Shown here piece by piece: positions 1-42,965 of a stretch of DNA of 64,000 nucleotides. The DNA comes from a virus (taxonomy: Duplodnaviria > Caudoviricetes). Every line of letters starts with the position of its first letter. The stretch's first letter is position 1. Made by a program: the position numbers and the translations under genes. Below the pieces are notes generated by a model. That model saw nothing but the letters and a program-made list of their open reading frames with translations, was not told the origin of the DNA and searched no databases. The stretch spans positions 1,340 to 65,339 of the IMG/VR virus record IMGVR_UViG_3300017922_000003; one strand, given 5' to 3'.

Positions 1-379
1 TATCAAAGTACGGATCCATATATTTGCTCATTGTACTTGTTATTTTATCTAGCTTGCTGAATATCTCTTCATAATAACTATCTACGACAATCCAGTAGCT
101 GTCATCAAGATACAATCCAGACTTATCATATGAAGATATTACTGATACACGTGACAGATCCCATTTTCTGCTGGTAAGAGTCAAGACCATATTCTTTTTT
201 ATGTGTTCAACATCATCGCCCATATACCACTCATAAGCAACAACTTTTGTGTGGTTTTTGGCCGAATCGACAGGATTAGGTCCGGCACTTATAATCCTGC
301 CATCCATAGTCTCATAAAAATTCAGGAACTTATCCTTCTTGTTGCAAATTGACGCTATAAGTTCCAATTTCTCAGGCAT
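1..379 (-). CDS. Hypothetical early protein, partial (runs off the window start)
   Basis: ATG at 379-377 directly after the stop of the 380-871 gene, preceded by GAGGAGAG; frame is open to base 1 (MPEKLELIASICNKK...). Confidence 0.7.
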   Translation of the reverse strand, partial: MPEKLELIASICNKKDKFLNFYETMDGRIISAGPNPVDSAKNHTKVVAYEWYMGDDVEHIKKNMVLTLTSRKWDLSRVSVISSYDKSGLYLDDSYWIVVDSYYEEIFSKLDKITSTMSKYMDPYFD

Positions 380-871
380 TTAATCACTCTCCTCTACATA
401 CATTATTCCGTTTCGATTAGCAAATCTATATTTAGACGTTATATCAACTTCTTCTTTATCCTTTAATATTTTCATCGCTTTCTTTCTAAGTTGTTTTCTC
501 ACATCTCGATGCAAGTACAGGTAGATAGTCCTGCCGTCTTCACCACCAGCGAATGGAAATACTTTGATGTACCTCAAATCTTTCTTTTTCACCAAGAGTC
601 CAAGAGCGTTGTTGAGCTTTCTAACAGTCTTTATTGAAACTCCTTCCTCTCTCCATTCAAATTTCAACGCTTTATCTCTAATGGCATATTTCAACAACTC
701 GTTCACAAATTTATCGATTGCTTTCTGACCAAAGGCGATATACTTTATCTCAACTTCTGGTGTATCGCCAACGGCCTCAACCAGTTTTACCTCTCCATCA
801 ACTTCAACGAGGCATTTAAATCTAGTCATTAGCCAGTTTAGATAGTACGGAGCAAAAGCAAGTATCTTCAC
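380..871 (-). CDS. Hypothetical basic protein (~163 aa)
   Basis: ORF track 380..880; RBS AAAGGAG lies 8 nt before GTG at 871, so that start is preferred. Confidence 0.75.
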   Translation of the reverse strand: MKILAFAPYYLNWLMTRFKCLVEVDGEVKLVEAVGDTPEVEIKYIAFGQKAIDKFVNELLKYAIRDKALKFEWREEGVSIKTVRKLNNALGLLVKKKDLRYIKVFPFAGGEDGRTIYLYLHRDVRKQLRKKAMKILKDKEEVDITSKYRFANRNGIMYVEESD

Positions 872-1158
872 ATAAACCACTCCTTTAAAAGTAGAATATC
901 CTGCATTTGCATTACATTTTCCAAAATAAAATGTCCTTCATATGAGTAACAAATACTTTACAGAGGCCAGCGATACTCACTAACCCCTACACCACACAAT
1001 ACACACCCTTATTACATAACATACTAGTCTTAAGTACTACGCATACTACATAACACTAGCTTGCATAAATACACACGTAATGCCACTTAAACCCTCATCA
1101 CAACCACTGTATAAACACTTTGGAGGATTGAAGTTTTGGCCGAAATGTGCTGATCTCT

Positions 1159-1170
1159 TCATGTGCTGGG
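1159..1170 (-). promoter_or_regulatory. Early-region motif copy (CCCAGCACATGA, variant)
   Basis: One mismatch to the CCCAGCTYATGA motif seen at 2006, 2696, 3846, 4289 and 4408; intergenic. Confidence 0.45.
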
Positions 1171-1479
1171 TGGAAAATTTACAAGAATGTGTACGAATAT
1201 ACGTAAATAAGGGGAAGAATACTATTCACTCTCGCTATTCGGCTCACAGACAGGCACACAACGCCCTGAGTATAGCCTCATAGATCCCCCAACGCACCGG
1301 ATATACAGCAAAACAGCCTAACTTCAGCACTAATATTCAGTCGTTCGACCTAATTCAAGGGCAATAGGCTCCACGGAGCCATGCGGGTTTGAGGTCTATT
1401 GACGCCAAATTTCCTACACAGTGGGGCGACAGAGTACGCCCATAAATATTTGGTCATTTGACTGAATTTATACAAGCAA

Positions 1480-1707
1480 TTATTTCCACCATTCGAACCC
1501 TCCGCCGGCGGACTCCATAATTTCGTTCTTCTCTTCCTGCGTGAGTTCTCTGACTCTATAGAAGCAACCACAACTAGAACACGTGTAGAATGCGGAGTTA
1601 CCTCTTCGCCAGATCTTCTCGCCACATCTCGAGCAGACGAAATATCTGTCGTCAGTGTCGTAGGGCCAGTACTTTATCTCCATATCCTTGTTGTCAAGAT
1701 CTTCCAT
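1480..1707 (-). CDS. Small Zn-ribbon protein (75 aa)
   Basis: CSRC...CSSC double CxxC; RBS AAAGGAGG before the ATG. Confidence 0.75.
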   Translation of the reverse strand: MEDLDNKDMEIKYWPYDTDDRYFVCSRCGEKIWRRGNSAFYTCSSCGCFYRVRELTQEEKNEIMESAGGGFEWWK

Positions 1708-2005
1708 TTCCTTCGCCTCCTTTATATTATCTGTTTAGATAACATATTCACCCAAAATCCTAAGGGTAATTGTCAGAAGACACGATTTCCTAAGGGTAAA
1801 TACCTTACCCCGGCTATAAAAACGCCTTAGAATCCATTCTCGCAAGGAAAGTTGTTAATGCGCTTAAATAGCCGTTTAGCACAATCGCCAAATCGCGCAA
1901 ACCCGCATAACACCGTTGGCGTTAATGCGAGTGGGTAAGTTCAGCGCAAATTCAGCGATTTCATGTCATTTTCGCTATTCAAGATCTGATCTTGTTTATA
2001 TTATA

Positions 2006-2017
2006 TCATAAGCTGGG
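2006..2017 (-). promoter_or_regulatory. Early-region motif copy (CCCAGCTTATGA)
   Basis: Exact 12-mer shared with 2696-2707; intergenic, just after a hairpin. Confidence 0.5.
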
Positions 2018-2019
2018 AT

Positions 2020-2045
2020 AAAACAGCCCGGGTTATTCACCCGGA
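2020..2045 (-). terminator. Possible intrinsic terminator
   Basis: Minus strand CCGGGTGAATAACCCGG hairpin then GCTGTTTT, immediately after the stop at 2047. Confidence 0.45.
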
Positions 2046-2046
2046 A

Positions 2047-2421
2047 CTACTTCTCTCTCGCAAATCTTTCTTTAGCAGAAATTGTATTCAGAGTACCGTC
2101 GTTCTCAATGAGGCGTTTAAGCCAATCGGTATTTGAGTCGTTGTCCCAAATTGTTTCCGGTACCCTATTATATTCTTCCCCGTCTTTGTAGAATATAATT
2201 TCGTAAACGTTAACGTCGTCCTGGTCGTGGCGAGTTGTTCCCTCGTCCACGAAGTACTCATCACAACCAGCGAACAGCATCGCATCCAGCTCACATTCTG
2301 CTGCGAGCTTAGCGATGTTTGTGTCTTCTGAGATCTCGCTATGACCATAGTCGCCTACAGCCAGATCCCAAGCCTTCCATGTTGTTGCTAGTCTTAACTT
2401 ATCACATTCTATTAACATCAT
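2047..2421 (-). CDS. Hypothetical acidic protein (~124 aa)
   Basis: 3' part of track ORF 2047..2577; ATG at 2421 follows GGAGGTGGAG and the stop of the upstream gene. Confidence 0.7.
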   Translation of the reverse strand: MMLIECDKLRLATTWKAWDLAVGDYGHSEISEDTNIAKLAAECELDAMLFAGCDEYFVDEGTTRHDQDDVNVYEIIFYKDGEEYNRVPETIWDNDSNTDWLKRLIENDGTLNTISAKERFAREK

Positions 2422-2422
2422 A

Positions 2423-2641
2423 TTACTCCACCTCCACAAGTTTTGTTGTGTAGCTAACGTGGAACTCGTCATACATGAGTTCTTCGCCGTTGAATGTAAC
2501 ATGCACGGCGTTTTGATTTGCAAGCACTTTTTCGTGCTCGCCAGCGATATATTCAATTGCTTCATTTTTGCTATCAAATATTTCTTCTTCGAATGTTTCT
2601 ACGTCATTGTCATCTACTATATATGTTTCCACTTTCCACAT
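2423..2641 (-). CDS. Hypothetical small acidic protein (~72 aa)
   Basis: Track ORF 2423..2674; RBS GGAGG before ATG at 2641 (MWKVETY...). Confidence 0.7.
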   Translation of the reverse strand: MWKVETYIVDDNDVETFEEEIFDSKNEAIEYIAGEHEKVLANQNAVHVTFNGEELMYDEFHVSYTTKLVEVE

Positions 2642-2695
2642 GACAACCTCCACATATTTTACCCACTCAGCCACTTGCTGAAGTGGGAGATCTTT

Positions 2696-2772
2696 TCATA
2701 AGCTGGGTGGTACATAGGTAAGTATATAAGATACTGCCGATAAGTATTTTACATATTTACTCACGCACCACC
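2696..2772 (-). promoter_or_regulatory. Long hairpin ending in the early motif CACCCAGCTTATGA
   Basis: Minus-strand stem GGTGGTGCGT...ATGTACCACC (2772-2706, with G-U pairs) runs directly into the motif at 2707-2696. Confidence 0.55.
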
Positions 2773-2895
2773 TATACTCTTACACTTTCACAACCAGCGA
2801 CTATTACCCCACCACCCCCGTACTAACACTCTTAACTGTCTTGAGACATAAGAGCTATCGTACATCCCCCAACGCCTTTTTCTCGCAGACTTTTG

Positions 2896-3064
2896 CAAGG
2901 TCGTTAACGCGGGCTTTTTCAAAGTCGTTACCCTTTGGGCAACGGCTGGAATTCAAAGTCGTTACCTACGTCTCGACCTGAGATTCAAGGTCGTTAACGC
3001 GTTGCGTCTCGACTCGAAATTCAAAGTCGTTACCTACGGCTCGACTTGTTTTTCAAGGTCGTTA
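2896..3064 (+). repeat. Iteron-like array of six CAARGTCGTTA boxes
   Basis: Boxes start at 2896, 2920, 2954, 2986, 3022 and 3054 (spacing 24/34/32/36/32); inter-box sequences are also related (e.g. CCTACG..CTCGAC). Confidence 0.85.
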
Positions 3065-3078
3065 ATGCGCTTAACTTT

Positions 3079-3121
3079 AAAAAAATCCCCCTCGCCAGCG
3101 CCGATAGGCGTGGTGAGAGGG
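3079..3121 (-). terminator. Intrinsic terminator closing the early RNAP cassette
   Basis: Minus strand CCCTCTCACCACGCC-TATC-GGCGCTGGCGAGGGGG followed by A and T7. Confidence 0.7.
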
Positions 3122-3241
3122 CAAAAGGGGGTGAAAAGTTGGTAACTCAGGGTTGCTTCGGGAACCAAGTCACGTTGAGTAACTTGATTCTCGGAGTAAC
3201 CCTCCCCAGGGACAGGTGGGTCCCCGGGGAGATGATGGATA

Positions 3242-3526
3242 TTATTTAGATTCGAAGCGAACGAGGGAAATAAATTTCAGAATATTTCCCTCTCGATTAG
3301 TTTGAGTTTTACCATCGACGAGAGGTATAGAGATTTGCCACCCCTCGACGAAAGTCTTAGCAGACCTTATCGGGAGCCAGCTCTGTTCGTACACGCAGTT
3401 AACAGTTTCGCCAGATGGCGTCTTTAGCACGCCACCACGCCTATATGGTTTAACAGTTTGTGGTGAGCGCTTATATTCCAAAATCTCTGGATCTACTTTA
3501 ACAATTCTTTTCTGATTCAAACTCAT
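3242..3526 (-). CDS. Hypothetical protein (94 aa)
   Basis: ORF with RBS AAGGAGG; overlaps the end of the upstream gene. Confidence 0.7.
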   Translation of the reverse strand: MSLNQKRIVKVDPEILEYKRSPQTVKPYRRGGVLKTPSGETVNCVYEQSWLPIRSAKTFVEGWQISIPLVDGKTQTNREGNILKFISLVRFESK

Positions 3527-3773
3527 TCAAATCATCCTCCTTTAAATTTTTACCAACCTCTGGCTCGGTCGGCTTGATTTTGCTCACAAAACGTTTCCAT
3601 TTACCAATGAGTGCTTCCTTAACGCTCCAAAGAACGAGCGCAAGAAGAGCACCTAAGAAACCAAAGAATATTTCTCGCACAACAACACCCCTTCCGGAAA
3701 AGATTTCTACACTGGCAACAACGGATGGTAGTGCCAACATAGACAAAGTGAAAATAAGGATTAGTTTTCGCAA
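3498..3773 (-). CDS. Small membrane protein (~91 aa, signal/TM helix plus a second TM helix)
   Basis: Track ORF 3498..3842; RBS AAAGGGTG before TTG at 3773; hydrophobic segments LILIFTLSMLALPSVVA and IFFGFLGALLALVLW. Confidence 0.65.
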   Translation of the reverse strand: MRKLILIFTLSMLALPSVVASVEIFSGRGVVVREIFFGFLGALLALVLWSVKEALIGKWKRFVSKIKPTEPEVGKNLKEDDLNEFESEKNC

Positions 3774-3845
3774 AGTGCACACCCTTTCAAAAAGATTTCC
3801 CTGCCGGTGGGGAACCGACAGGGATATGGGGTAAAAGTGCATAGT

Positions 3846-3883
3846 TCATGAGCTGGGTGTAGCCGGATGACCACACCCAACTC
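3846..3883 (-). promoter_or_regulatory. 15-bp stem-loop whose 3' arm is the early motif CCCAGCTCATGA
   Basis: Minus strand GAGTTGGGTGTGGTC-ATCC-GGCTACACCCAGCTC then ATGAA, 9 nt after the stop at 3893. Confidence 0.55.
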
Positions 3884-3892
3884 TGATTGAGT

Positions 3893-4225
3893 TTATGCCT
3901 CTTGTAGACGGGTAACGGCAACGATTCTGCCGTTTTCCCGTACTGCTGACTTCCCGGTGTCGGGAGCCAGTACGTCCGTTCGACTGGTTTTAGATGCAAC
4001 CAGCGACGAGGTTATATAGACAGTGCCATTTTCTGGTTCAGGGATACCCTCGATATCCCCGAACACTGTCTTCACGACGGGGATTTCAAACCCGTCAACG
4101 TTCATGCTTCCATTAGGCACCTGTTGCACTGAGGCTCGTGCGACGGTACCGGATGGTTTAATCTCTAATTTTCCCCTATCGGTCTCAATGACCAGGGGGT
4201 GGGGTGTCAAATTCACTAACTTCAT
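3893..4225 (-). CDS. Conserved phage protein of the N-terminal NLTPH family (function unknown)
   Basis: MKLVNLTPH...PSGTVAR...GIPEP.NGTVYITS.LVA...R.DVLAPDTG..AVR..GRIVAV pattern recognised from many phage hypotheticals; RBS GGAGG. Confidence 0.8.
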   Translation of the reverse strand: MKLVNLTPHPLVIETDRGKLEIKPSGTVARASVQQVPNGSMNVDGFEIPVVKTVFGDIEGIPEPENGTVYITSSLVASKTSRTDVLAPDTGKSAVRENGRIVAVTRLQEA

Positions 4226-4288
4226 AAGTAACCTCCATATATTTATCCCCCGCCGGACACATTCCGGAGGGAGAAGATTTTTAATACT

Positions 4289-4470
4289 TCATGAGCTGGG
4301 TGCCTCGGAATAGCAACACAACCAGCGACAACCAAGCACATAAGAATGTACTTGAGTCGTTGATAGTATTGCTACCGAGACACGGCTCAATCCATACCAA
4401 CTACAATTCATAAGCTAGGTGGTACATATGGTGATTCAGTTCGACTGCCGACCAAGGTAACCACTCGGCT
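4289..4470 (-). ncRNA. Candidate structured non-coding RNA or leader: two tandem long hairpins, each ending in the early motif
   Basis: Stems 4470-4413 and 4389-4292 (TGAGC/GCTCA, GTGTCTCGG/CCGAGGCAC, TAGCAA/TTGCTA and others); motif copies at 4419-4408 and 4300-4289; no credible ORF. Confidence 0.45.
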
Positions 4471-4598
4471 TTGTCCCCCAACGCGCACGTGCTACAATAG
4501 AAGGGGCAAGGGAAGGTGAGAAGGCCATGCTCATCAGACTCCCGAAGCCTTCTCTTGTGGGAGTGACGAGAGGGCCGAAGCCCCCTCGTTTCGCAGAG

Positions 4599-7211
4599 TT
4601 ATTCTCGGTAATTGACAAGGAAGTCGGCTATTTCAGCCTCCTTGTCGTATGCGTCTTTGTCCAGACACTGTACGTCCGGACAATTTTCAGTTGCTTCCTC
4701 ATAGACTCCGCGGAGGAAGTCACCACGGAGTTGAGGAAGACCGAACCACCAGAGGCAGACGATGTCATCGTCATCGTCTCCTCCGATCCATTCGGCGTCC
4801 TTGTAACCAACGACGATTACATCTTCAGGTAGATATGCCGTGGTTACTTGGACTGTTGGGATCCTCTTAAGAACAGGATCCCTTTGGAGCCTAAACGTGA
4901 GCTGAGAGAGGACTTTATTAACGGCATCTGGACCAGCCGCTATGAGGTCCTCTCTCTGTTTCTTACTCAACGTTGTATTCATTTGGAGCAGTCTATTAAT
5001 AGTTTCCGCTTTGAACGGAACGACCGCTCCTCTTTCGAAAGCGCCCGTAGCCATTCTGCCACTTACAACGGGCAGTCTGGGTGTGAACGCAATCTTGGAT
5101 CGTTTGAGTAAGAATTCCATATACTCAAACAGGCGGTCAAATGTATAAGTACCGCCTTTTTCTTCGGTAACCACGATTTCCATGGCCTTACGAAGTTCTG
5201 GACCAATCATTGTGGTACCGTCGTTCTTAATAAGGTACTTTGCCGGGAGCAATTTAATGCCTCTGACCATTAGAGGCTCGTCTACTCCCTTAAGTACCAT
5301 CTTTATCTCCTTGTCAGACAGGCGTGTATCTTCCCATCTAACCTTTTCTGCCACCAGAGTCTTCACAAACTCGAGACTTGGTGGGACGGATGAGCTCTTC
5401 TCGAAAAGCTTGTTGAAAGCCTTCCTTCTGAGCTCATTCAGCTCTTTCTTCTTCATGCGGTCAATGCTCTTGGGACTATTTTCTTGAACCATTTCATCGA
5501 CCTGCTGGAGAATCATCGTTATTGACTTGATATTGTCTATGATTCTCCTAATTTCCCACTGATGTTTCTTAGCATGGTGCCTAAGCAGTGGGTTGAGCTG
5601 GCTGAACACGTCAGGAGATGTTGCTTTTTCCTGAGCGTACAGCATTGATTTCATGCGTACCCCTGTCGATCTGTCTACCGAGAGGTCTATGGTAACCTCT
5701 GATAGGCAGATATAGCACGGTACACCATTAACCGTGCCTTCAACGAGGTGCACGTTTTTGGGATCAACGTTTCGAGGAATAGTCACTTTCTCTTCCTCAT
5801 TAAGATAAGCGTTCATCGCTATTGTTCCTGAAGCGAACAACGCTTTCTTGAGTCTTCTTGATCCCTGGGAATCGAATACGAGATCAACTTGCATCTCGCG
5901 ATCCCCAACCTTGGCCCGATAGTTTCCAGACCATATTCCAATGCCTTTGGACTTGAGTCCGCCAGCATTGAACTTGGCATTAACTGCGTGACCGTCGGCG
6001 TACAGTTCCTTAAACTTCTTGTTGACTAATACGCCATTGCCACGATTAGATACAAAACCGTTACTCAGGGCAGGAAAGCCCTTTTCACAGTTCTTTGGGA
6101 TAGCTATAATAGCCTGTGTTGAAGCCTCAGGCATTTTATATGTCCCGTTTGGCAGTTCAGAGTACATCTTAATGTACTCCTTCCTGCGCTCACCCAGATC
6201 AACCGCAAAGTGCACGGCTGACTGGATTGTTCTCTTGACATCCGCTGTGTCCATCAACGGATTCAAGAGGTACATCAGGAAACTGTAGTGATAATTCTTG
6301 TTCTTAGGTACAGCCAGTTTCCCGATGGAATTTGAACTAGAGAACGATGCAAAGTCCAGCATGTCCTCTGTCCATTCTTTGCTCCCTTTGTAGGAAGCAA
6401 ATGCTTTTTCAGGGAGTTTGTTGATTAGATCCCTGAATATTTCCTTATCGTCGTATGGGTCAACTTCAACCCATAGACGTTTGCTGATCCACTTATACTT
6501 TCCAGCAAAGCGGATCAGTTTTGATTTGAGAGTCCTGAAAAGGTCTCTCCGGTGGATCTTATAGGCATATTTAAAGAGCGTAGAACTCTTTATCAGCCTA
6601 TACGTCTTACTCTTCTGGTGATAAAAGAAAACACCAGAGAGCAGGACTTTGGAGTAGTATCTCGACAGGTGACCGAGATCATCTATGATGACCTCACCAT
6701 CGAGGTCCTCACTGGACCATCGTGATGGATCATCATAGGGACTGCTGGTACTCTCGGTTTCGAATACCAGTGTTTCTTCCATCATTTCAACCAAAGGTTG
6801 CAACCTCTCAGGGTCGCCGTATGCTTCCTTGCGAGCCCTGAAAATGTCTGTTACAACCATGTGGTTGATTTTCCCGAAGGCTTTCTTTATCTCTTTCAAT
6901 TCTGCCTTCGAGAAATCCTTTCCACACAATTGGAGGAATATACTCCATTCCTCCGCCGGTTTGTATATACCCTTGTTGGAACTGTTACCGGGTATAACCG
7001 GCATGGACTTTTTGTCCAACAGAGGCTGTATTACATTTGCCTCCATGGACAGTGCTACTTTCTCCTTCAATTGCTCAGGCACATATGGCGCTAAGTGCAT
7101 AAGCAATCGAACTGGAATCCCTATGGAGTCCTTGAAATCTTTCAAGACTCTCAACTGACTACGAAATTCATCGTAAGTCAGAGGGGTTTCCAGCTTCATG
7201 AGATCGACCAT
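4599..7211 (-). CDS. Putative single-chain two-barrel (DPBB) DNA-directed RNA polymerase catalytic subunit, 870 aa
   Basis: beta-like motifs GNGVLVNKKF, K413-FNAGGL-K420-S-K422-G and VD443LVFDSQG, then beta'-like R777-D-P-V-L and GG-D812-DDD-D816. R-to-D spacing is 35 aa, as for E. coli beta' R425-D460. RBS AAAGGGGGT. Confidence 0.7.
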   Translation of the reverse strand: MVDLMKLETPLTYDEFRSQLRVLKDFKDSIGIPVRLLMHLAPYVPEQLKEKVALSMEANVIQPLLDKKSMPVIPGNSSNKGIYKPAEEWSIFLQLCGKDFSKAELKEIKKAFGKINHMVVTDIFRARKEAYGDPERLQPLVEMMEETLVFETESTSSPYDDPSRWSSEDLDGEVIIDDLGHLSRYYSKVLLSGVFFYHQKSKTYRLIKSSTLFKYAYKIHRRDLFRTLKSKLIRFAGKYKWISKRLWVEVDPYDDKEIFRDLINKLPEKAFASYKGSKEWTEDMLDFASFSSSNSIGKLAVPKNKNYHYSFLMYLLNPLMDTADVKRTIQSAVHFAVDLGERRKEYIKMYSELPNGTYKMPEASTQAIIAIPKNCEKGFPALSNGFVSNRGNGVLVNKKFKELYADGHAVNAKFNAGGLKSKGIGIWSGNYRAKVGDREMQVDLVFDSQGSRRLKKALFASGTIAMNAYLNEEEKVTIPRNVDPKNVHLVEGTVNGVPCYICLSEVTIDLSVDRSTGVRMKSMLYAQEKATSPDVFSQLNPLLRHHAKKHQWEIRRIIDNIKSITMILQQVDEMVQENSPKSIDRMKKKELNELRRKAFNKLFEKSSSVPPSLEFVKTLVAEKVRWEDTRLSDKEIKMVLKGVDEPLMVRGIKLLPAKYLIKNDGTTMIGPELRKAMEIVVTEEKGGTYTFDRLFEYMEFLLKRSKIAFTPRLPVVSGRMATGAFERGAVVPFKAETINRLLQMNTTLSKKQREDLIAAGPDAVNKVLSQLTFRLQRDPVLKRIPTVQVTTAYLPEDVIVVGYKDAEWIGGDDDDDIVCLWWFGLPQLRGDFLRGVYEEATENCPDVQCLDKDAYDKEAEIADFLVNYRE

Positions 7212-7234
7212 TTTGTTACCCCCTTTTCAAAATT

Positions 7235-7261
7235 GACAGTTTAACGTCATGTCTGGGACGT
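7235..7261 (-). promoter_or_regulatory. H-type pseudoknot in the 5' leader of the RNAP gene
   Basis: Minus strand ACGTC-CCAGACAT-GACGT-TAAAC-TGTC: stem 1 ACGTC/GACGT, loop GACA pairs with TGTC; ends 8 nt upstream of the RBS. Confidence 0.45.
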
Positions 7262-7390
7262 GAGCTACCCGCTCATACCTGCCATCCGGCATGCATCAAC
7301 GAGCAGTCGTTAGAGCTTAGTCGTTAACACATTCAACTAGTCCCCTACCGCACCTACTCTCACAGCAAAGGGGCTAATTGAATTTTTGCG

Positions 7391-7459
7391 TTAACGGTGT
7401 TGCATACCGCTACGGTTCTTAACCAACGATGTTTCATACCACAATGGATTCTTATCCAA
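7391..7459 (-). CDS. Possible 22-aa leader peptide (MDKNPLWYETSLVKNRSGMQHR)
   Basis: Perfect AAAGGAGG 8 nt before TTG at 7459; the RBS is folded into a GGAG-GAAA-CTCC hairpin. Confidence 0.3.
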   Translation of the reverse strand: MDKNPLWYETSLVKNRSGMQHR

Positions 7460-7529
7460 TGGAGTTTCCTCCTTTCCAGAGCGATTAACCCGCTCATATC
7501 TGCCTGAGGCAGGTATCAGAGAGTTAATC

Positions 7530-7566
7530 AAAATAAAGCAAAAGGCGGGGGCCGAAGCCCCTCGCC
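7530..7566 (-). terminator. Intrinsic terminator after the 174-aa gene
   Basis: Minus strand GGCGAGGGGC-TTCG-GCCCCCGCC then TTTTGCTTTATTTT. Confidence 0.7.
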
Positions 7567-7575
7567 AAAAAAATA

Positions 7576-8100
7576 TCACTTAAGGTTCTTGCGAACCTCC
7601 GACAGAAGCTTTCCAGCCTCCGTCTGTCCCAGTTTCACCTGGGACTTTTGGGGCTTTTTGCCCCTTGAGGACTTTTCGGTCCTCTTTTTCCTAGTTTTCT
7701 TTTTCGAGGACTTCTCAGTCCTCTGTTCCTTTTTGACTGCCTTTACGACAGTCATTGAGGAGAATCTTTCGACCTCCTCTTTGTTTAGAGAGCTGAGCAG
7801 CCCCCTCGTCTGGACGAAGGCTACCCTCCTCTCACGGAGCCACTTATCTTTCAAGCGCTCCGTTCTTTTTAGGCTAGCCACTACTGTGGCGTAGCCTTCC
7901 TTACTATTGGGGTCCGGATAAAGTTCATCCATCCCCCTTTTAATCGTCAGCAAGGTGCTCTTTGCACCCGCTAACTTTGAGAGGACCATCTCGGCCCTCT
8001 CGTATTTTTCATTCAGGGTTTCAACCCTTTTCAGGGCTTCCGCCCTCCTTTTCTTTTCGAGACCTTTCTCAAGGTCTCTTTTCAATTTCAACAAATCCAT
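7576..8100 (-). CDS. Highly basic coiled-coil protein (174 aa), probably nucleic-acid binding
   Basis: K/R-rich with a repeated RTEKSS unit; RBS GAAAGGGGG. Confidence 0.75.
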   Translation of the reverse strand: MDLLKLKRDLEKGLEKKRRAEALKRVETLNEKYERAEMVLSKLAGAKSTLLTIKRGMDELYPDPNSKEGYATVVASLKRTERLKDKWLRERRVAFVQTRGLLSSLNKEEVERFSSMTVVKAVKKEQRTEKSSKKKTRKKRTEKSSRGKKPQKSQVKLGQTEAGKLLSEVRKNLK

Positions 8101-8361
8101 GATTTTTCCCCCTTTCTCCTCGCCACACCCATGGACTAGTGTGGGTCACAGGAGTAGAATTTAGGTCTTTTATTTTTAGTCAATAGGGTCATTACCCAGG
8201 ACCCGAGCCCATTGCTCGTATCAACCCAACTGTTAACAGTCAGGCTCATATGAGGAATGAGCGTGGTAAAATAAAAATGTGTCCCCGGCGTGGGGCCGAG
8301 GACAAACCCCGTGTTGATTTACACAGCACACGGGAAAGCTGCGATACCCAAGGGGGAGGAT

Positions 8362-8508
8362 TTATTCCTCCTCCTTGTTTTCCTCAGGCTCCTCGATGGG
8401 CATATTGCCCTCGAGGATTTCGCTTATACTGGCATATTCGCCAGCAAAGCTTTTCTCATCCACCGTTGCTAGGCGGACAAGAAATTCAAGACCCTTTTTC
8501 CAATCCAT
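8362..8508 (-). CDS. Small acidic early protein (48 aa), first gene of the leftward arm
   Basis: Perfect RBS AAAGGAGGTGA before ATG at 8508 (MDWKKGLEF...EEPEENKEEE); 3' half of track ORF 8362..8664. Confidence 0.7.
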   Translation of the reverse strand: MDWKKGLEFLVRLATVDEKSFAGEYASISEILEGNMPIEEPEENKEEE

Positions 8509-8608
8509 GATGTCACCTCCTTTCAAATAATGTCTCCTACACCGGCTGAGAAGAAGGGCACGGGCAAAAATCTCAGCCCCTCTACCACCCGGATATAGGA
8601 GCATAGTT

Positions 8609-8732
8609 CTCCCTCCCTGTAATCCTCTCTTTTTACATTCAGTACCCCCCTCTGTTTTCTTCACTTTTCCCAGTACTCCCTCCCTGTATACGAAGTAGAT
8701 TCGTATCTTCCACGAATAATCCTCTCTTTTTA
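8609..8732. repeat. Pyrimidine-rich block with two interleaved direct repeats
   Basis: CTCCCTCCCTGTA at 8609 and 8676; TAATCCTCTCTTTTTA at 8620 and 8717. Confidence 0.7.
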
Positions 8733-8741
8733 TCTAACTGT

Positions 8742-8760
8742 TGTTATATCTACATATGAG
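8742..8760 (+). promoter_or_regulatory. Late promoter motif TGTTATATCTA-N5-GAG (terminase operon)
   Basis: Matches the motif found at the start of eight other late operons. Confidence 0.7.
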
Positions 8761-8774
8761 ACGTGAACACCTTA

Positions 8775-8844
8775 TAACGACCTTGAAAAAGCCGTTGCCT
8801 GAAGGGTAACGACCTTGAGTTTCAGGTCGTGCTGTAGGTAAGGA
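8775..8844 (-). repeat. Inverted copy of the iteron array (two perfect boxes, one degenerate)
   Basis: TAACGACCTTG at 8775 and 8807, TAAGGA at 8839 (32-bp spacing); spacers match the reverse complement of parts of 2913-2990. Confidence 0.8.
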
Positions 8845-8851
8845 AAGAAAG

Positions 8852-9613
8852 GTGGAGGTGCGACTAGTGTCCCAAAACAATGGACGAGAGTCTAAAAATA
8901 AAGAAATAGATCTCCTGTCTGAAGTGAGTAATGCGTTAGAGCGCAAGGAGAGGCAGAAGCGTAGTTTACGTGAGAAGTTAGCGTTGGCACGTGTTGGTAG
9001 TGGGGCAAACACGGGGCCGTTAGAGATACGCGATGTTGATCCATACATTGATTTAAGTGGTGTGGATGATGAGACGAGGGAGAAGATACAGCAGAGGCTC
9101 AGGTTACTTAGCAGGGGAATTAGTTTTACTGGTGTATTGAATTGCAAGGGGCACAAGGCGTGTCCTTACCGGGACGGTTGTCCATTTATTGGGTTGGAGC
9201 CCAAGGGGGAGAAGTGTCCTATGGAGATGGCGTCGCTGGATCGTATGTTTGACGCTTATTTTCAGAGTCTTGGTATAGATGGTCAGGATGCTGCGGAGAT
9301 AACGCAGTTACAGTCCCTATTGGATTTAGAGCTTAAGATCATGCGTGCGAATGCGCAATTGAGTGAAGATGGGATGGAGCAGAGCACGTACAAGCAGGGA
9401 CAGGACGGTTCGACGTTTGTTGAGAAAAAACAGCATCATTTGCTGAAGACGCTTGAGACCTTGCACAATCAGAAGATGAAGATGCTTAAGAGTTTCAAAG
9501 CCACGCGGGAAAGTCGCGATGTGGAAAGGGATGTCTTTGATTTATCCAACAGAATAAACGAGCTACACAAAGCCCAGGGGCAGAAATCTCGGGGTCAAGG
9601 GAGTGATAAATAA
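8852..9613 (+). CDS. terS: Probable terminase small subunit
   Basis: First late gene, upstream of TerL; Cys cluster (C.GHKAC....CP....CP.E) and a helical C-terminus (...KKQHHLLKTLE...KMLKSFKATRESR) typical of TerS oligomerisation regions. Confidence 0.6.
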   Translation: MEVRLVSQNNGRESKNKEIDLLSEVSNALERKERQKRSLREKLALARVGSGANTGPLEIRDVDPYIDLSGVDDETREKIQQRLRLLSRGISFTGVLNCKGHKACPYRDGCPFIGLEPKGEKCPMEMASLDRMFDAYFQSLGIDGQDAAEITQLQSLLDLELKIMRANAQLSEDGMEQSTYKQGQDGSTFVEKKQHHLLKTLETLHNQKMKMLKSFKATRESRDVERDVFDLSNRINELHKAQGQKSRGQGSDK

Positions 9614-10500
9614 TGGTTGCTGGTAAAAGTGTTCTTGATTATTTAATTGGTGCTATTGGCGGAATGGGTAAGAGATGGAAGAAGGCAGCTGGTGCTGAAG
9701 CTGTTGAAAACGCCAAGGGTGCTTTAAATAAGGTGTTTGGAGCAATAGGTTTTCGTCGAGCCGGCAGACAGGCTGTGGTTGATGCAGGACAGGCTGCTGG
9801 TGGTGGCAGTAAGTTGTTTAGAGGTATCTTTGGTTTTGCTGGTGGTGACGCTGGTTTTGAAGCTAAGAACACCATCGCTGCTGTTTCCCAGCCATTAGCC
9901 GAATATGCTAGTGATGTTCAATACTATAGAACCTTGAAAGGTAAAGCTGCTGGAATAACAAAAAAGCTTAGCAAAGATACTCCTGAGAAAGTTAAAGCAA
10001 TAGCCAAAAAGGTTGAAAATGCCTATGCAAATGGCGATGTCGATGCTATAAAGGCAGCCAACAAAGATGCTTTTGATTACATAAAAACTTTGAAAAACGC
10101 AGACTACAGAGAACAAGCCGCAAAACAATTTAGAGAGACAGGTCTTGGTGAATTACTCAATGCAAGAGGAATGTCACGATACAACTCTTCGTATGATCGT
10201 CTCAAAGGTAGTTTGAATCAAGTTGGGGCAGAAATTGCAGATGAAAAAGCTTTAACGAACTGGGCTGCTAATGCCTCTGCTTCTGATCTAAAAGCCTTGC
10301 GTGCTATTAAACCAGACACTGGTTTGAGTTTCTGGGGAAAATCAGCTGTAGCTGGAATAACAAGAGGCGGTCTTGTTGGAGGGGTTGCAAGGGCTTCGCT
10401 ACCATTCGTGGGAATAGGCGGTACCATATATGCTTTCAAGAAACCTTTCGAAATGATTGATGTTGCTACCGAAGAGATAAAGAGAAACGGAGGGCTATAA
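9613..10500 (+). CDS. Gly/Ala/Lys-rich protein with C-terminal hydrophobic segment; possible internal/ejection protein
   Basis: 295-aa ORF coupled to terS by TAATG; call rests on composition only. Confidence 0.6.
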   Translation: MVAGKSVLDYLIGAIGGMGKRWKKAAGAEAVENAKGALNKVFGAIGFRRAGRQAVVDAGQAAGGGSKLFRGIFGFAGGDAGFEAKNTIAAVSQPLAEYASDVQYYRTLKGKAAGITKKLSKDTPEKVKAIAKKVENAYANGDVDAIKAANKDAFDYIKTLKNADYREQAAKQFRETGLGELLNARGMSRYNSSYDRLKGSLNQVGAEIADEKALTNWAANASASDLKALRAIKPDTGLSFWGKSAVAGITRGGLVGGVARASLPFVGIGGTIYAFKKPFEMIDVATEEIKRNGGL

Positions 10501-21887: not shown

Positions 21888-21962
21888 GCCAGTGTAGCTC
21901 AACGGAAGAGCAGCTGATTTGTAATCAGCAGGTTGGGGGTTCAAATCCCTTCGCTGGCCCCA
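21888..21962 (+). tRNA. trnT: tRNA-Thr (anticodon UGU) with encoded CCA
   Basis: Acceptor GCCAGTG/CGCTGGC, D arm GCTC/GAGC, anticodon arm GCTGA-TTTGTAA-TCAGC, T loop TTCAAAT, CCA at 21960-21962. Confidence 0.95.
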
Positions 21963-31470: not shown

Positions 31471-34400
31471 ATGAACCTTGACGAACTGAGAAAGTATGCA
31501 CAAGAGGCAGAACAAGTTCATGAAGAAGCGTCAAGCAATTTCAATCTTGGCGGTCTGTTGCTCGCAGGTACCGCTGCGCTTGCTATGGGAACTCCCGTTC
31601 GCAGCATGCTCAAACGTGTGGAATTCAGTGTATTTGGGTCTTTGCTCGAAACACGCTGGGGTCGGAAGTTACTTTCGAGGGCAGGTGTTGAAGCTTCTCA
31701 AAAAGGATTGGAACAAGCTTTTGGAACAATAGGCGGTAATTATTCAAAAGCAGGTTCCAGCATATTCTTGCGCTCTATTGAAAAGATGCCCGATATCACG
31801 TTGGGTGGATTTACCAGAGCAGCAGGAAAAAAGATACTTGGTGCGGATGCAATAAAAAAGATAGACGACTTTCCGCTCGATATAGGCGCTCTTTCTATGG
31901 AATCTTATCTCGCATTCAGGGTTGCCTCCACAGTTACCGGACAGCGCGATAACGATCAAGGTTACTTTAAATATGCTGCTACCATAGGACCTATGATTGC
32001 CGGTATGGCCTTCGGATATCGAAAGGCCGGCGACATGGTTCAGGAGGTTCTCAAACGAACAGGTTATGACGAGGTAATAGCAAAGGGACTCTCGAAAGTA
32101 AAGAAAGCCGGTTTGAAGGTAACTGCATTTAGAAAAGCGATACGTGAAGCGTCAAGTTCGGGCATAAGTCTGGGTAGGATTATAAAAGGCGCTCCGGGAG
32201 AATGGTCTAGGCTAAAGGGATTGTATCGCCAGTTTGCCGGCGAAATGGCAGAGGACGATATCGTTGAATCAACAGACAGTCTGAGACAGTTGATCAGCGT
32301 GGCAAGAAAATACAGTAGTCAGGTTGATTCTGCAGGCGATGAGGCAGGTAAGCTTTATGAAATGTTTGAACCTGCAGCGAGGGAGATAGAAGACCGTTTT
32401 CAGGTACGTTCGCCCGGACTGCTGAACGAACTGCTTGGATTGAAAACCCCTAGTGTTGAACAGATTATCAAGCAGGGAGACGTTATAAGCGAAGATAATG
32501 TTAAGGCATTGCGTAGATTCTCGAAGGTCTTCGGGGTTGATCTATCCAAGGTATCTGCTGGCGAGGGCATCTCAATGAGTAGGGCAGGATCGTTGTTGCC
32601 TATTGCTTCTGGCAGAAGACGAACACTGGATATGTTCTACAAAGCAGCAACGAGTTTCCATATACCATATCTGAATTTCAATCCACTTGCAATATTCCAA
32701 CCAAGACTGTTCAGAGAGTATGCAAGGCGTCCTGTTTACGGTGTTATGGACGCAAAAGAAGCTATCCCTTACATCATGGGTGGAAAATCCAAGAGTGGAA
32801 CGATCGGTGAATTTAGCTATGAATATCTCCAGAAGCTGGGTATTTTAAAGTCAGGCAAAGAAGCAGAAGGAGCCCTGTTAAAAGCCGCAACCCGTTCTCA
32901 GTTACATGTTTCTGGTGGCAGGTCGTTCCTTTCGGTTGATTTAAAAGACATCGAATCCTTCTTGGATACCGATCACGCAGGCAAACAGGCAAGGGATATG
33001 CTCGAAAATGCTCTAAACCGCAATCGCGGAAGGCTTGTTGTAGATGTTACAGAGCATTTTGGAGAGGGCTATCTGCTTCCAAAGAGTGATGTAGGCGGCG
33101 CATTCGCACGTTCATACTACATGCAGTCAGGCATGTTGCTGCCAGGCAGACAAGAAGCCGATATGAACTGGTGGCAAAGAGCCGATTTGCCCTTTACCAA
33201 CACCGAAAATATTGAAGAACCTATATTTAAACGATTTTATAAAAGTATAAAGAGATTTGTTGGCGGTTCAAAACTCAAAAGAGCTCTTGCTGCAGCTGGT
33301 GGGCATGCAGGAAAAACAACCGAACAGCGATTAAACAACCAATTCTGGGGAGCAAGAGAGATATACAAACTGTTCAGACAAATGGGAATTGGTGATATTC
33401 CCGAGGATGTCATACAGAAGATATCAAGAAACATCGGCGATGGACCTATAGAGTTTGGTGGTATAAAGAACACTCAGGACATAGTCAACTCGTTCTACAA
33501 CTATCTAAGAACGGTCCCACGCTTCAGAAGTGCTTCTGATGATGTTGCGAAACTGTTCAGAACTGTTGGTCCTACAGATTACGAGTGGCATATATATAGA
33601 GAACTCAAACATTTTAAACAAACAGGCATGGAGCCAAACAGAGAATGGCTTGACGCCATCATATCAAGTTCCGGAGAGTCCCGGCTGGATATTATGAAGC
33701 GTTCCGTAACCATGGGTCTTCTGCAGAATGTAGAAAACCCAGAACAGGTTATAAAAGGTATGGCCGGCTCATATAATAAAGGATTCATAGACAACCTGCT
33801 CAGCATGGCAGAATACGCAAAAAGGGAAAGAGCGGTTTACAGTGCTGCGATAGGTGAGATGAGTGCCAGTAAGGCGACCGAACAGATTCTTGATATGGGT
33901 GGAATTCAGCGTTTCTATGGAAGCATAAAGTCACGACCGTTCAGTCCAAGATGGTTCAAAAATGTGCGCATTATGACCGCTTACGAGCAGGTACCCGAGG
34001 AAAGGGCAAAGATTTCCAGCGCCAACGTTAACCTGTTTATTCGACGTACACAGGGTCCTTTCAGCACAAAGGAAGGCTTTGCCAAGCAACTGCTTCCTAC
34101 TACCGATACTCGAGCCAGCACAACAATACCCGGTGTACTAGGCTTTTACTTTGCCGACAGACCCGTTCAATTGCTCGAAGAAATAGGACTGGGAAGACCA
34201 TCTTACGATCGTCCAGGTGTTCTTATAAAACTTCTCAATCAGCTGGGGTTCAAACAGGCTGGTAAGTTCGTCGGACCAAATGCGCTGTACTCAATATCAT
34301 CTGTGATATTCAAACGTGTCATGCCGGTATTTTTTGCATATGAATTGTTCAAATATCTGGACTACAAGACAGAACAACTGATGGGAGAGAGCCCTTCAGA

Positions 34401-37179: not shown

Positions 37180-37189
37180 GGTGAGATAG

Positions 37190-40100
37190 ATGGCAGAGGA
37201 AAATGATAAGTTAGAGCAATTGCGAAAAGCGTTCGGAGATAGATTTTACAAAAAGATAAGAAGTGGCGAAAAACCCACACTGGATGATCTACTGCTAGCT
37301 CGAAGCATAGACAGTGGTAATCTAAAACACTTCTTTGCCGGTACCGGAGGTAAGCCATTTGCCAGTGCAGACGGTGTTGAGGTTTCCACCGAAATGGCAA
37401 TGCACATGATGGGATCATCCAAGTTTGATGTTGCCGGGAGACCAACCGGAGATTTCACCATGATTCCTCTGCTGCCTCTTGTTAAGCGTTCCGGTCAGGA
37501 AACAACACCGCTCATGCTCGGTTCCAGAGGAAGTTCCCCTAAAATATTTGTTAGAACAGGGAAGTTGATACCAGAACGCGAGGGCATGGAACCATATGTT
37601 TTTACAGAAAAATTTTTGAATGATGTTGCAGGCCAACGTTCTCTAGACCAGAGTGTTTACCTTCCATTTGCGAAACGCAATCCTTTCAGGCACGGAGAAA
37701 TAGAATCTACAAAACCACAGATAATCGTTGATTCCGAAGGCAGGGTTCGATTGACTTCGTCACAACGTATCTATCCCAATTCGCCTGATGTGAAAAATCT
37801 TACATACGAAGTAACCGGTTATCGTGTTGGTAACAAGCGTTACACGCCTGAAGAGATGGTAAGACTCAGTAAACAGGGCTTTCACGAAAATGTTGAAGGA
37901 AGAGAATTTTGGCATGAAGGTATAAGAGATAAACCAGAGCCAATTGTGAAACTACGGCTGGAATCAGAACAGGGATTAGTTTTTGAAGAAGAGTATGACA
38001 TTGGCAAACTTGAAGCAGAAGAGAGACGAATCATTAAACAACTTTCGGATGTTAAAGCTGGTGACGTTGCTTTAAATCAATCCGATCAGGCTGTGAGAAG
38101 AATGGCCGCACAGTATGCAGATCAAGCGTATGGTGGGCAGATAGCAACAGAAATAACGAGAAATATAAAAGAAAGCGGAAGAAAACTTACCGATTTCACT
38201 ATAAATGATTCCGATGTTTTCTTTGACATAGAAAGTGTTTCAAGACCGACGAAGGGTGACTTTTATATCACTCAGCTTGGTGTTGCGAAAGGTGCCTCGG
38301 ATCCATATAGTGTCCTTCCAACCTACATGTTCAACACAGAAGCCGCAAGAGAAGCACTGGAATATACACCCGGAGGAAAGTTACAAGAAGCAGGTAAAGT
38401 TGCACGACGCATGATAAATGTGATTAATAGAAAGAACCCCAGATTACAAAAGGGTGAACAGATAGCAGGCAGTGTTGCTGATATGCGTGCCGCTCTTGGA
38501 CTTACAGGAGAAGGAAAACCAAGGTTTATAGGATATAACATATCGCGTGATGGCGGTTTTGATATTCCCGCGCTCATAGAAAAAGGCGTCCTAACAAAGC
38601 AAGAAGCCGATGAACTAGAGGTTGTGGACCTTTTCAAAACTATACAGCAAAACAGAAGAGCGGTAGAACAGGTTTATGGAATAGATCTGAGCGAAGGATT
38701 GTCCCTAGAGAATGTTTACAAACAAATGTATAGAAGATTTGAAGGTAAAGAAGCAATGGCGGGACAATCACATAACGCTGCATTTGACGTTGAAATGACC
38801 AGATACGTGTACAAAAGATTGCAGCCATTTATGGAAGCAAAGCGAAAACTAAATACACCGACATCCAGAGTACAGATGTTAACAAGAAATAGACTTGAGA
38901 GTATATTCAGTGGCGCTATTAAAGACAGAAATCTTTCTCCTATGGGTAATCAATACAGCTTCGATCCTATGGGCAGACTGGTTTACAGCACCAGGCTGTC
39001 CAAAACTAGAATGGAGCGCAGAGGAGGACTGGGACTTTTTCACGAAGGAACATACGATTATACAAAAGGTAATATTAGAGGTAAATTTAATATTGCCGGC
39101 AAAGACGCTATGTTAACGATAGAGAACACAGAGTATGCCGGCGAATTTAAACCATACTATTCACGCGCAAGCCAGCTGGATAATATGCTAAAAGACTTTA
39201 CTCCAGAAAAAATTTCCACACGTGCTGCTGGAGAAGTTGGTCAAATATTCGAAGCAGTTAACACAGATAGATTATTAGAATCTATAGCAGGAGCTGCGGA
39301 TGAAGATATCTACTCTGTTATTGGCGGAAAGATACCAAGCGGAACTGTAGGTATCTCGGGTAACCCAAAATTTGTAGGTCAGGCATACGCCTTTATGGGG
39401 GAAATGGCACAACGCACAGGATTGGCTAGCAAAGAAAACATTGCTAAATCCATTAACTTATCCGCTGGCTATTATGGAAAGTACGGCAACCAAGTCGGAG
39501 AGGTTTTTGCCAGCATGGAACTTGGAAAGATGTATGCAGATCAACTTGGTGGAAGACAAATGGTTGAACTGTTAAGCAGTGCGTTTGGAGTGCAGGCAGG
39601 AGCCAGAGTTACTTTAGAAGACCTCAGATCAATAACCACAGCTGGCGGCATAAATATTTACGCTGATAAGAACTGGTATTTCAGACAGGCTTCCGAAAGC
39701 GTGAAACGACCGATTTCAATTGCCGAGATGATAGACGCAATGAAGGACGCTCGCAAACCAAGAGACATGGTGTTAAAAGATATAATGCAGTCCATATCTA
39801 CGATGTTCCAAAGCAGTAATGTGAACATCACACCGTCAGAGATTAGAAAATCCTTGGGCGTTGGACTTACAGATTTTACTGACCAGGTATCGAATATACG
39901 CAGGAGTTTTGAAGATTTCACCAAGGAAATATTCACCACATATCAGAGAGGCATTGCAGATATGGCTGAGAACATTGGCGATCTTCAGTATTCCTTGCTG
40001 AAGCAGGGGAACATACCTCAGGATGTTATCAGTAAATATGCTCAGTTGTTAAGCGATGAAGTACGGCAGACAGGCAAAATTGATGTAGAAGGTGCTGTTA

Positions 40101-42934: not shown

Positions 42935-42942
42935 ACCGCCAT

Positions 42943-42960
42943 TGTTATTTCTACACTGAG
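42943..42960 (+). promoter_or_regulatory. Late promoter motif TGTTATTTCTA-N4-GAG (baseplate operon)
   Basis: Exact motif in the 31-bp gap between two giant genes. Confidence 0.8.
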
Positions 42961-42965
42961 AGGCG

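Follow-up and report, generated by a model that had tools for sequence, protein, structure and literature searches.

To our knowledge, the way in which single-chain two-barrel RNA polymerases (YonO, gp64 of P23-45, and the crAss-like gp66) find their promoters is largely not understood; these enzymes are minimal relatives of the cellular RNA polymerase. Among other phage transcription systems, T7 has class II promoters, with the arrangement phi1.1A, R1.1, phi1.1B placed right after gene 1, and the promoters of the N4 virion polymerase carry, each of them, a short hairpin (stem of 5–7 base pairs (bp), loop of 3 nucleotides (nt)) on the template strand. The present analysis concerns a stretch of 64,000 nt (the window), corresponding to positions 1340–65339 of the 65,339-nt IMG/VR record IMGVR_UViG_3300017922_000003 (Caudoviricetes, an uncultured subsurface phage), in which a gene for a protein of 870 amino acids (aa), P0001, which is by its predicted fold a divergent single-chain two-barrel RNA polymerase, is followed by six copies of a motif, named here M1; this motif is probably a promoter of some kind, and it is tentatively proposed, at a little under an even chance, that its copies are middle-class promoters read by P0001.

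The likeness to T7 consists in a conserved block of about 20 nt repeated ahead of small genes and starting just downstream of the phage polymerase gene, in two close tandem copies with a long RNA hairpin between them, and in hairpin-rich leaders; the locus differs in that P0001, a two-barrel enzyme, is unrelated to the T7 family, in that the sequence of the motif is unrelated, and in that hairpins share bases with the motif. As in N4, inverted repeats are found at or beside a candidate phage-polymerase promoter, but the stems have here 15 to about 40 pairs, occur at three of the six copies and are, in two cases out of three, stronger on the RNA-sense strand, and the polymerase families are unrelated; M1 thus lacks the features of an N4-type hairpin promoter, and the N4-like, hairpin-dependent promoters suggested by an earlier, sequence-only reading of this DNA are disfavoured.

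In P23-45, distinct motifs for the two two-barrel polymerases, the non-virion gp64 and the virion gp96, were mapped by ONT-cappable-seq and ChIP-seq, and a 26-nt conserved motif is described at seven termination sites near the left end (PMC10770324). The present locus shares with P23-45 a polymerase gene placed in an arm of small early genes and separate motifs for each gene class, and P23-45 provides besides a precedent for a motif at termination sites; the enzymes are in both cases single-chain and two-barrel, P74-26 gp62 and P23-45 gp96 matching the P0001 model with Z 10.3 and 9.5, but P0001 has no detectable sequence similarity to gp64, its 870 aa compare with 592 residues in the gp62 chain, and a virion polymerase was not found in the present window. 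The non-virion polymerase of phiKZ, according to PMC7598289, requires T(−3)ATG(+1) across the transcription start in its late promoter; there a two-barrel phage polymerase depends on bases overlapping the start, and M1 has an invariant ATG after T or C in six of six copies, but the phiKZ enzyme is multi-subunit and its 4-nt motif lacks upstream conservation, whereas M1 has 12–22 conserved nt. YonO, from the Bacillus prophage SPbeta, drives late genes, and one start site was mapped for it, the sequence of its promoter, P_YonO, being left undetermined by the authors in 2017 (PMC5467207); by its description there it resembles P0001 in being a single chain with a mass near 100 kDa and a distant relative of the cellular polymerases, its phage being one of Bacillota, the group that the portal protein suggests for the host here as well, and it differs in the late genes that it serves. 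A phage polymerase with promoters of its own is of a well-known kind; new here are a very divergent polymerase family, a candidate signal for it, and the overlap of this signal with RNA-sense hairpins.

The motif M1 in the left arm

The window comprises a left arm (1 to about 8700), with small genes and the 870-aa gene (4599–7211) on the minus strand, and a late arm (about 8850–64000), with structural genes on the plus strand, including those for the portal, the major capsid protein, the tail sheath, and three proteins of 1902–2279 aa. The minus-strand consensus of M1 is (TATGTAC)CACCCAGCTYATGAA, and the search was carried out with the pattern CCCAGCTYATGA at no more than one mismatch. Six matches were found, at 1159, 2006, 2696, 3846, 4289 and 4408, all on the minus strand, against a mean of 0.52 and a maximum of 3 in shuffled sequences (n = 100), none of which reached six; the whole 65,339-nt contig holds no M1 beyond the same six, and the reversed-pattern control gave no match. 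Neither the late arm nor the 1.5 kb preceding the polymerase gene contains M1. When the 15-mer CACCCAGCTYATGAA was allowed up to three mismatches, the late arm yielded only two matches, both with three mismatches and both within open reading frames (ORFs; 32828 and 33887), and the 1.3 kb to the left of the window added one more, again within an ORF; with a chance expectation of 2.94 matches for the whole window, these extra matches are at chance level. None of the six copies falls within an ORF, and all are on the strand that codes in the left arm, M1 being thus over-represented, intergenic and co-oriented with the genes, as is expected of phage-polymerase promoters. The earlier claims of six same-strand intergenic copies, of their absence from the late arm, and of 21 of 22 nt common to the 2696 and 4408 copies are borne out by the pattern scan, the shuffled sequences, the whole-contig search and the repeat comparison, in which 2695–2716 and 4407–4428 form a repeat family at 95% identity.

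M1 is a single contiguous block of 15–22 nt, not palindromic, with no −10-like hexamer at constant spacing, and its copies fall into two forms. Class A (4408, 2696 and 1159) carries CCACC, two of its members having also TATGTA upstream; class B (4289 and 3846) is CACCCAGCTCATGAA(C/G)TAT in both copies, and the 2006 copy has the 12-nt core exactly and divergent edges. In all six, the invariant ATG is preceded by T or C (YATG).

The order of elements along the minus strand is as follows. Past the polymerase stop codon (4599) come two GC hairpins, the 11-mer GCGTTGGGGGA and, about 180 nt from the stop, the first M1 copy, the class A 22-mer TATGTACCACCTAGCTTATGAA at 4407–4428; a hairpin of about 95 nt separates it from the class B copy CACCCAGCTCATGAA at 4288–4302, which stands 62 nt ahead of the ATG at 4225, with a GC-rich hairpin in the presumed 5′ leader (4246–4274; leader z −2.43) and a GGAGG in between, and the 110-aa gene (4225–3893) follows. 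Beyond this gene, a 15-bp hairpin ends in the other class B copy (CACCCAGCTCATGAA, 3845–3859), placed about 65 nt ahead of the probable TTG start, chosen by eye, of a small membrane-protein gene; the GC-rich hairpin of its presumed leader (3798–3824; z −3.26) was flagged as terminator-like because of the AAATCTTTTTG after it, and two small genes extend to 3242. Next are found a structured RNA, a terminator-like GC hairpin with a run of seven T (3078–3122, minus strand), which was recognised from the minimum-energy fold and the sequence, was missed by the simple terminator scan and closes the first gene block, and then six tandem TAACGACYTTGAA repeats (3064–2894), a further GCGTTGGGGGA, and a long hairpin ending in the class A 22-mer TATGTACCACCCAGCTTATGAA (2695–2716). 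This copy lies 360 nt past the seven-T hairpin, is the only M1 copy between it and the next genes, and precedes by 51 nt the ATG at 2643, again with a GC-rich hairpin of a presumed leader (2662–2690; z −2.47) and a GGAGG, the two genes that follow occupying 2643–2047. Past 2047, the terminator scan gave an intrinsic-terminator-like hairpin with CTGTTTTAT (2027–2045, minus strand), and the M1 copy with the exact 12-nt core (2005–2019) begins two bases beyond it; after this copy come TGATATAAT, a leader of about 300 nt and a 75-aa zinc-ribbon-like gene (1707–1480). Past 1480, the third GCGTTGGGGGA precedes the last copy, CACCCAGCACATGAA with one mismatch (1158–1172), which has GATCTYTTCAT in common with the 2696 copy and is separated from the GTG start at 880 by about 278 nt, a leader of some 280 nt being followed by more genes to the contig end. 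M1 is thus always ahead of genes, and at three of the six copies the start codon comes 51–66 nt past it, with a leader hairpin and GGAGG in between; the second GC-rich hairpin and ribosome-binding site noted earlier at 2696, 3846 and 4289 are accordingly confirmed by the z values given above and by GGAGG-type sites in the sequence. One further hairpin with a T-run is present in the left arm, at 7545–7566.

The 11-mer GCGTTGGGGGA occurs in three exact minus-strand copies (1285–1295, 2865–2875 and 4474–4484) against 0.46 expected, each of them 55–160 nt upstream of a class A copy of M1, and it is retained, at a loose end of the alignment, in the related strain described below; pairing of GCGTTGGGGGA with M1 as a general RNA domain was considered and rejected, being robust in the minimum-energy fold only at 1159, context-dependent at 4408 and absent at 2696. 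The two long presumed leaders on the minus strand (1708–2005, about 300 nt, and 881–1157, about 280 nt) contain internal repeats CCTTAGGAAATCG / CCCTTAGGATTTTGGG and words resembling GCATTAACGC. Mini-ORFs opening at the ATG of M1 (3, 10, 40 etc. codons) are neither conserved nor preceded by a ribosome site, and were set aside. The TAACGACYTTGAA repeats give eight matches against 0.25 expected, the six tandem ones on the minus strand (2894–3064) being spaced by about 32–36 nt and the other two lying on the plus strand (8775–8819), between a late-type motif at 8742 and the first plus-strand gene; they point with transcription in both divergent arms, TAACGAC-like pieces are found also upstream of the polymerase gene (about 7320–7340), and the repeats could be operator or iteron arrays.

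The polymerase P0001

The identification of P0001 (4599–7211, minus strand) as a two-barrel RNA polymerase is due to its AlphaFold2 model (pLDDT 69.9, pTM 0.60), together with the structural matches obtained with it and an alignment of nine sequences. In Foldseek, all 50 matches listed are chains of multisubunit RNA polymerases, with E from 3.8e-5. In VIA-align, residues 291–514 match beta/Rpb2-type chains, including those of the AR9 and phiKZ non-virion enzymes, with Z 11–13, and residues 710–826 match the beta′ barrel of M. tuberculosis with Z 8.1, while over residues 288–827 the single-chain enzymes QDE-1, P74-26 gp62 and P23-45 gp96 give Z 10.4, 10.3 and 9.5, respectively; two double-psi beta-barrels, one beta-like (about 291–514) and one beta′-like (about 710–826), are thus predicted within one chain. 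The metal-binding DxDxD signature is represented by GGDDDDD at 810–816, where D812, D813, D814 and D816 are invariant in all nine aligned sequences, as part of an invariant R-x-P...P...GDDDxD block near the C-terminus, with R777-x-P779 and P785 ahead of the aspartates and with a conserved SGRHATGA block preceding it.

By sequence, no Pfam family above cut-off, no PHROG, no PDB chain (phmmer or profile) and no GenBank phage (tblastn) matches P0001; the earlier assignment of the 870-aa ORF to an RNA polymerase is thus upheld by the predicted fold, though no sequence library recognises the protein. A word-indexed search gave four homologues, at 70, 34, 34 and 34% identity, the first of these (P0002) being encoded on a contig of 3.2 kb and P0003 on one of 7.3 kb, and a profile search of 1.84 billion representatives gave eight proteins at E ≤ 0.001, four of them at E ≤ 1e-30 and one, an RTX-repeat protein (P0010), probably spurious; no relatives of P0001 were found in IMG/VR, in GTDB genomes or in GenBank phages. 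A second polymerase was looked for in the window with the profile of the P0001 family, which matches only P0001 among 167 six-frame ORFs, and by sequence-level checks of the three giant proteins of the late arm, in which there is no profile match and no convincing DxDxD, the only D.D.D string being at residue 173 of the 2279-aa protein; among the subset of ORFs scanned in the window, neither a sigma factor nor a second polymerase was found.

Upstream of the gene, in a 330-nt untranslated stretch between the terminator at 7545–7566 and the polymerase start, GGCAGRTATGAGCGGGT is present in two exact minus-strand copies (7267–7283 and 7488–7504), which may be the signal driving the polymerase gene; GGCAGRTATGAGCGGGT contains CAG...TATGA, as does M1.

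Candidate promoters or RNA signals, and the hairpins overlapping them

Three M1 copies overlap significant hairpins of the minus strand. The strongest (4293–4388; about 40 pairs, 5 of them G-U; −52.3 kcal/mol, z −8.87, against −41.3 on the plus strand) is the long RNA hairpin between the 4408 and 4289 copies, and the 3′ foot of its stem is the GGCAC..AGCTC of the 4289 copy. The 15-bp RNA hairpin at 3850–3883 (−26.0 kcal/mol, z −6.58, against −14.4 on the plus strand; 3 G-U pairs and no A-C mismatches) starts 5–10 nt past the stop of the 110-aa gene and has as its 3′ arm CTACACCCAGCTC of the 3846 copy, whereas the imperfect long hairpin at 2706–2772 (about 27 pairs; −28.6 kcal/mol, z −4.92, against −27.9 on the plus strand), in which CCTATGTACCACC of the 2696 copy forms the 3′ arm, has no strand preference. 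The stem upstream of the 4408 copy is not significant (z −1.44; 20 of 200 shuffles fold as well), nor does a significant hairpin precede the 2006 or the 1159 copy. The sequence-only reading had placed four copies at long hairpins and had seen G-U pairs favouring the minus strand: the first statement holds for 3846, 4289 and 2696 but not for 4408, and the second for 3846 and 4289 but not for 2696.

The 3846 and 4289 stems are 11–12 kcal/mol more stable on the minus (RNA-sense) than on the plus (template) strand; the three stems together contain 14 G-U pairs, compared with four A-C 1x1 mismatches (which would be G-U on the plus strand), and all three imperfect positions of the 3846 stem are G-U on the RNA-sense strand. 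Because of this stronger RNA-sense folding and of the G-U bias, the three hairpins are best read as RNA structures, with transcripts running through them. Their loops are unrelated between copies, and all three end just ahead of AUGAA, with no T-run after the stem, so that they are not ordinary intrinsic terminators; the stem length associated with RNase III, about two helical turns, is reached at 4289 (about 40 pairs, with internal loops) and 2696 (about 27), the 3846 stem having 15 pairs.

As for M1 itself, the choice among its possible roles is made from anatomy; its function as a start signal, the position of the start and the identity of the reading enzyme are inferred from this. According to the mechanism proposed, the small genes past the polymerase gene would be transcribed from M1 as a second (middle) wave, and P0001, encoded just upstream, would be the enzyme that reads it; transcription would begin in or just past the invariant ATGA, and each transcript would open with a short leader, in which a GC-rich hairpin precedes the ribosome site. 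The long hairpins, for their part, would belong to the incoming upstream transcripts, as elements of 3′-end formation, stability or processing comparable to the RNase III stems of the T7 early genes, and would not be DNA hairpins of the N4 type required for initiation. The assignment to P0001 is suggested by the position of the first copy so close to the polymerase stop, by the lack of copies upstream, and by the T7 precedent. That M1 is a promoter is argued for by its gene-proximal, co-oriented and intergenic placement and by the fact that it occurs only downstream of the polymerase gene, as expected if the newly made enzyme is required. The 2006 copy and the 2696 copy (about 360 nt past the T-run site), moreover, follow terminators, where a processing or termination signal would be without substrate, and the genes past these terminators have no other promoter candidate; a contiguous block of 15–22 nt with high information content is typical of phage-polymerase promoters, and the invariant YATG is reminiscent of T(−3)ATG(+1), the start element of the phiKZ non-virion polymerase (PMC7598289). 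No sigma-70 promoter was found by the scan at any M1 site, nor was there an overall excess (11 found, 13.4 expected), and comparison by eye with the patterns of sigma-54, sigma-28 and ECF-type sites gave no match. The earlier suggestion of promoters for the phage polymerase thus remains, without its hairpin-dependent version, the best reading, in view of position, orientation, information content, downstream restriction and terminator-motif layout; the processing or termination sites proposed as its alternative are kept as the main rival for M1, and may apply to the hairpins.

The late arm offers a comparison within the same genome. Its motif, (GC)TGTTATTTCTA, has seven exact plus-strand copies in the pattern scan (22071, 23611, 26543, 30335, 42943, 55256 and 62630), and 18 within one mismatch against 2.42 expected, among them 31445 and 8742 (plus strand), the latter at the head of the plus-strand arm. 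Six of the seven exact copies are intergenic, all six being 10–45 nt ahead of a start codon and four a few bases past a hairpin with T-run; the seventh (23611) is within the 3′ end of the preceding ORF. TGTTATTTCTA, which has no sequence relationship to M1, is regarded as a candidate promoter of the late genes, and its copies indicate that the promoter layout in this genome is terminator, motif, gene, which is exactly the layout of the 2006 copy of M1. Two motif classes require two recognition systems, and only one polymerase is visible; the assignment of M1 to P0001 is to be read with this in mind.

The evidence from relatives is thin. In the oil-field runs X3 and X6, which hold DNA contigs of a related strain with patchy cover, the site matching the 4408 copy has the exact 22-mer of the 2696 copy (aligned to 2694–2715), and its flanks, of 29 nt on one side and some 30 nt opposite, are unalignable at 80% likeness; in this one strain the 22-mer appears to be kept constant while its flanks drift. 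Several observations, on the other hand, weigh against promoters read by P0001. At 3846 and 4289 the upstream half of M1 takes part in RNA-sense hairpins, and in that strain the other arm of the 4289 hairpin, which falls within the diverged 29 letters, would, as judged by eye, still pair with CACCCAGCTC; this hints that the pairing is maintained and suggests selection on an RNA-level role of those bases. Leaders as long as about 280–300 nt would result at the 2006 and 1159 copies, and the 4408 copy has only a hairpin and the next copy after it. Three metagenome contigs with polymerases 34–36% identical to P0001 lack M1 in the flank available (at most 1.9 kb), though a change of promoter specificity is expected at such identity and this absence says little. 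None of the listed sequencing runs containing this DNA is on record as RNA. Finally, with a late motif in TGTTATTTCTA and one visible polymerase in 45% of the genome, P0001 could read the late motif instead.

One of the three contigs, L119, whose polymerase is 34% identical, has a terminator-like hairpin and the next gene within 60 nt past its polymerase gene; the start of this next gene (4417–4822 of the contig) resembles, by eye, the N-terminal hybrid-binding domain of bacterial RNase H1. A three-mismatch match to M1 at the start of the polymerase ORF of another (L121) was taken as chance, as were the 111 stretches given by a 15-mer scan of IMG/VR, with one match each and with neither extended flank similarity nor companion motifs; the M1 22-mer has no match in GTDB genome contigs.

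Of the other roles that M1 might have, a site acting in RNA, for the sequence-specific processing, termination or pausing of left-arm transcripts, is rather unlikely, though it is the main rival. The upstream hairpin would guard or define a 3′ end, the single-stranded AUGAA would be the place of cut or release, and protection of the new 5′ end would fall to the downstream GC hairpin. This would account for CACCCAGCTC as the 3′ arm of far stronger RNA-sense hairpins at 3846 and 4289, for the excess of G-U pairs over A-C mismatches, for the start of the 3846 hairpin a few nt past a stop codon, for the AUGAA just beyond each of the three hairpins, and for 4289 and 2696 stems exceeding the roughly 20 bp associated with RNase III; the 26-nt motif at seven P23-45 termination sites offers a precedent (PMC10770324). 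Three of the six copies, however, have no significant upstream hairpin and no U-run follows the hairpins; at 2006 a complete intrinsic terminator directly precedes the motif, which would make a second one redundant, and the 2696 copy, about 360 nt past a terminator-like site with no intervening gene, has no upstream mRNA to finish. The genes past the terminators at about 3078 and 2027 would, moreover, be left with no promoter candidate except the neighbouring repeats, and the 62 nt between the 4289 copy and its gene are already occupied by a hairpin and a ribosome site. The two roles are not mutually exclusive on this analysis; T7 interleaves promoters and an RNase III stem after gene 1, much as the 4408 copy, the hairpin and the 4289 copy follow one another here. 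Less expected, and unlikely, is that M1 is a promoter read by a phage-redirected host polymerase or by a second phage polymerase, from the missing part of the genome or from the virion, P0001 reading TGTTATTTCTA; two unrelated promoter-like motifs with one visible polymerase, the estimate of 45% completeness, the late genes transcribed by the single-chain two-barrel enzyme YonO (PMC5467207), and the perfect extended −10 sequence TGATATAAT after the 2006 copy all point in this direction, but M1 has its first copy immediately past the polymerase gene and none before that gene, it is one block of 15–22 nt instead of two separated boxes, with no sigma-70-type site, and no candidate for such a reader came to light among the ORFs scanned.

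The intergenic position and good conservation of the copies would also suit an operator for a phage DNA-binding regulator, the more so as the 3846 hairpin makes M1 half of a DNA inverted repeat, but this is very improbable: M1 is not palindromic, all six copies are oriented with transcription, the partner arms at 4289 (about 80 nt off) and 2696 (about 55 nt off) are unrelated in sequence, the three mismatches of the 3846 repeat are all G-U-compatible on one strand, as in an RNA and not in a symmetric protein site, and at least four of the six copies have no adjacent core promoter. A composite signal, in which strand-asymmetric hairpins help a two-barrel polymerase to start or shared bases couple termination to initiation, is a quite improbable elaboration of the promoter reading. 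AR9 nvRNAP and QDE-1 recognise single-stranded template DNA; here, at the copies with hairpins, the non-template strand would fold, tolerating G-T wobbles, and the template, which has A-C mismatches at the same positions, could not, so that supercoiling or the passage of an upstream polymerase would leave the template-strand M1 single-stranded for P0001; if true, structure-assisted promoters would have been invented a second time, independently, and with a strand logic opposite to that of N4. Alternatively, the same bases would serve as terminator foot and as promoter, the release of one transcript being coupled to the start of the next.

Genome setting and significance

The record has a GC content of 42% and an estimated completeness of 45% (CheckV), about 55% of the genome being absent; two subsurface-metagenome runs contain the DNA of the window almost entirely, and oil-field runs contain part of it. 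The only GenBank phage relatives of the portal protein are those of Moorella phage MTATph1 and of large Bacillus myoviruses (24–28% identity), and this, taken with the strong GGAGG ribosome sites, points to Bacillota as the group of the host, probably a thermophilic member. In the late arm, three consecutive giant ORFs on the plus strand (31471–49805) encode proteins of 1902, 1914 and 2279 aa, the first two without Pfam or PHROG family match and the third with a staphylococcal-nuclease domain and an endolysin-like stretch close to its C-terminus; a protein atlas search with the 1902-aa protein gave nothing above 0.75. The sole tRNA found, tRNA-Thr (TGT), is at 21888–21962 on the plus strand, past the major capsid gene and before the next late motif, and Rfam recognises no family in 1–10000, except for a chance microRNA match (E 0.22).

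With P0001, a very divergent member of the single-chain two-barrel class is found beside a compact candidate promoter of 15–22 nt, and the pair is directly testable in vitro; if it works, it could be used for orthogonal transcription, and the system might be thermostable. In its overlap with the hairpins, M1 provides, in turn, a concrete case for the packing of termination or processing together with re-initiation in the early regions of phages.

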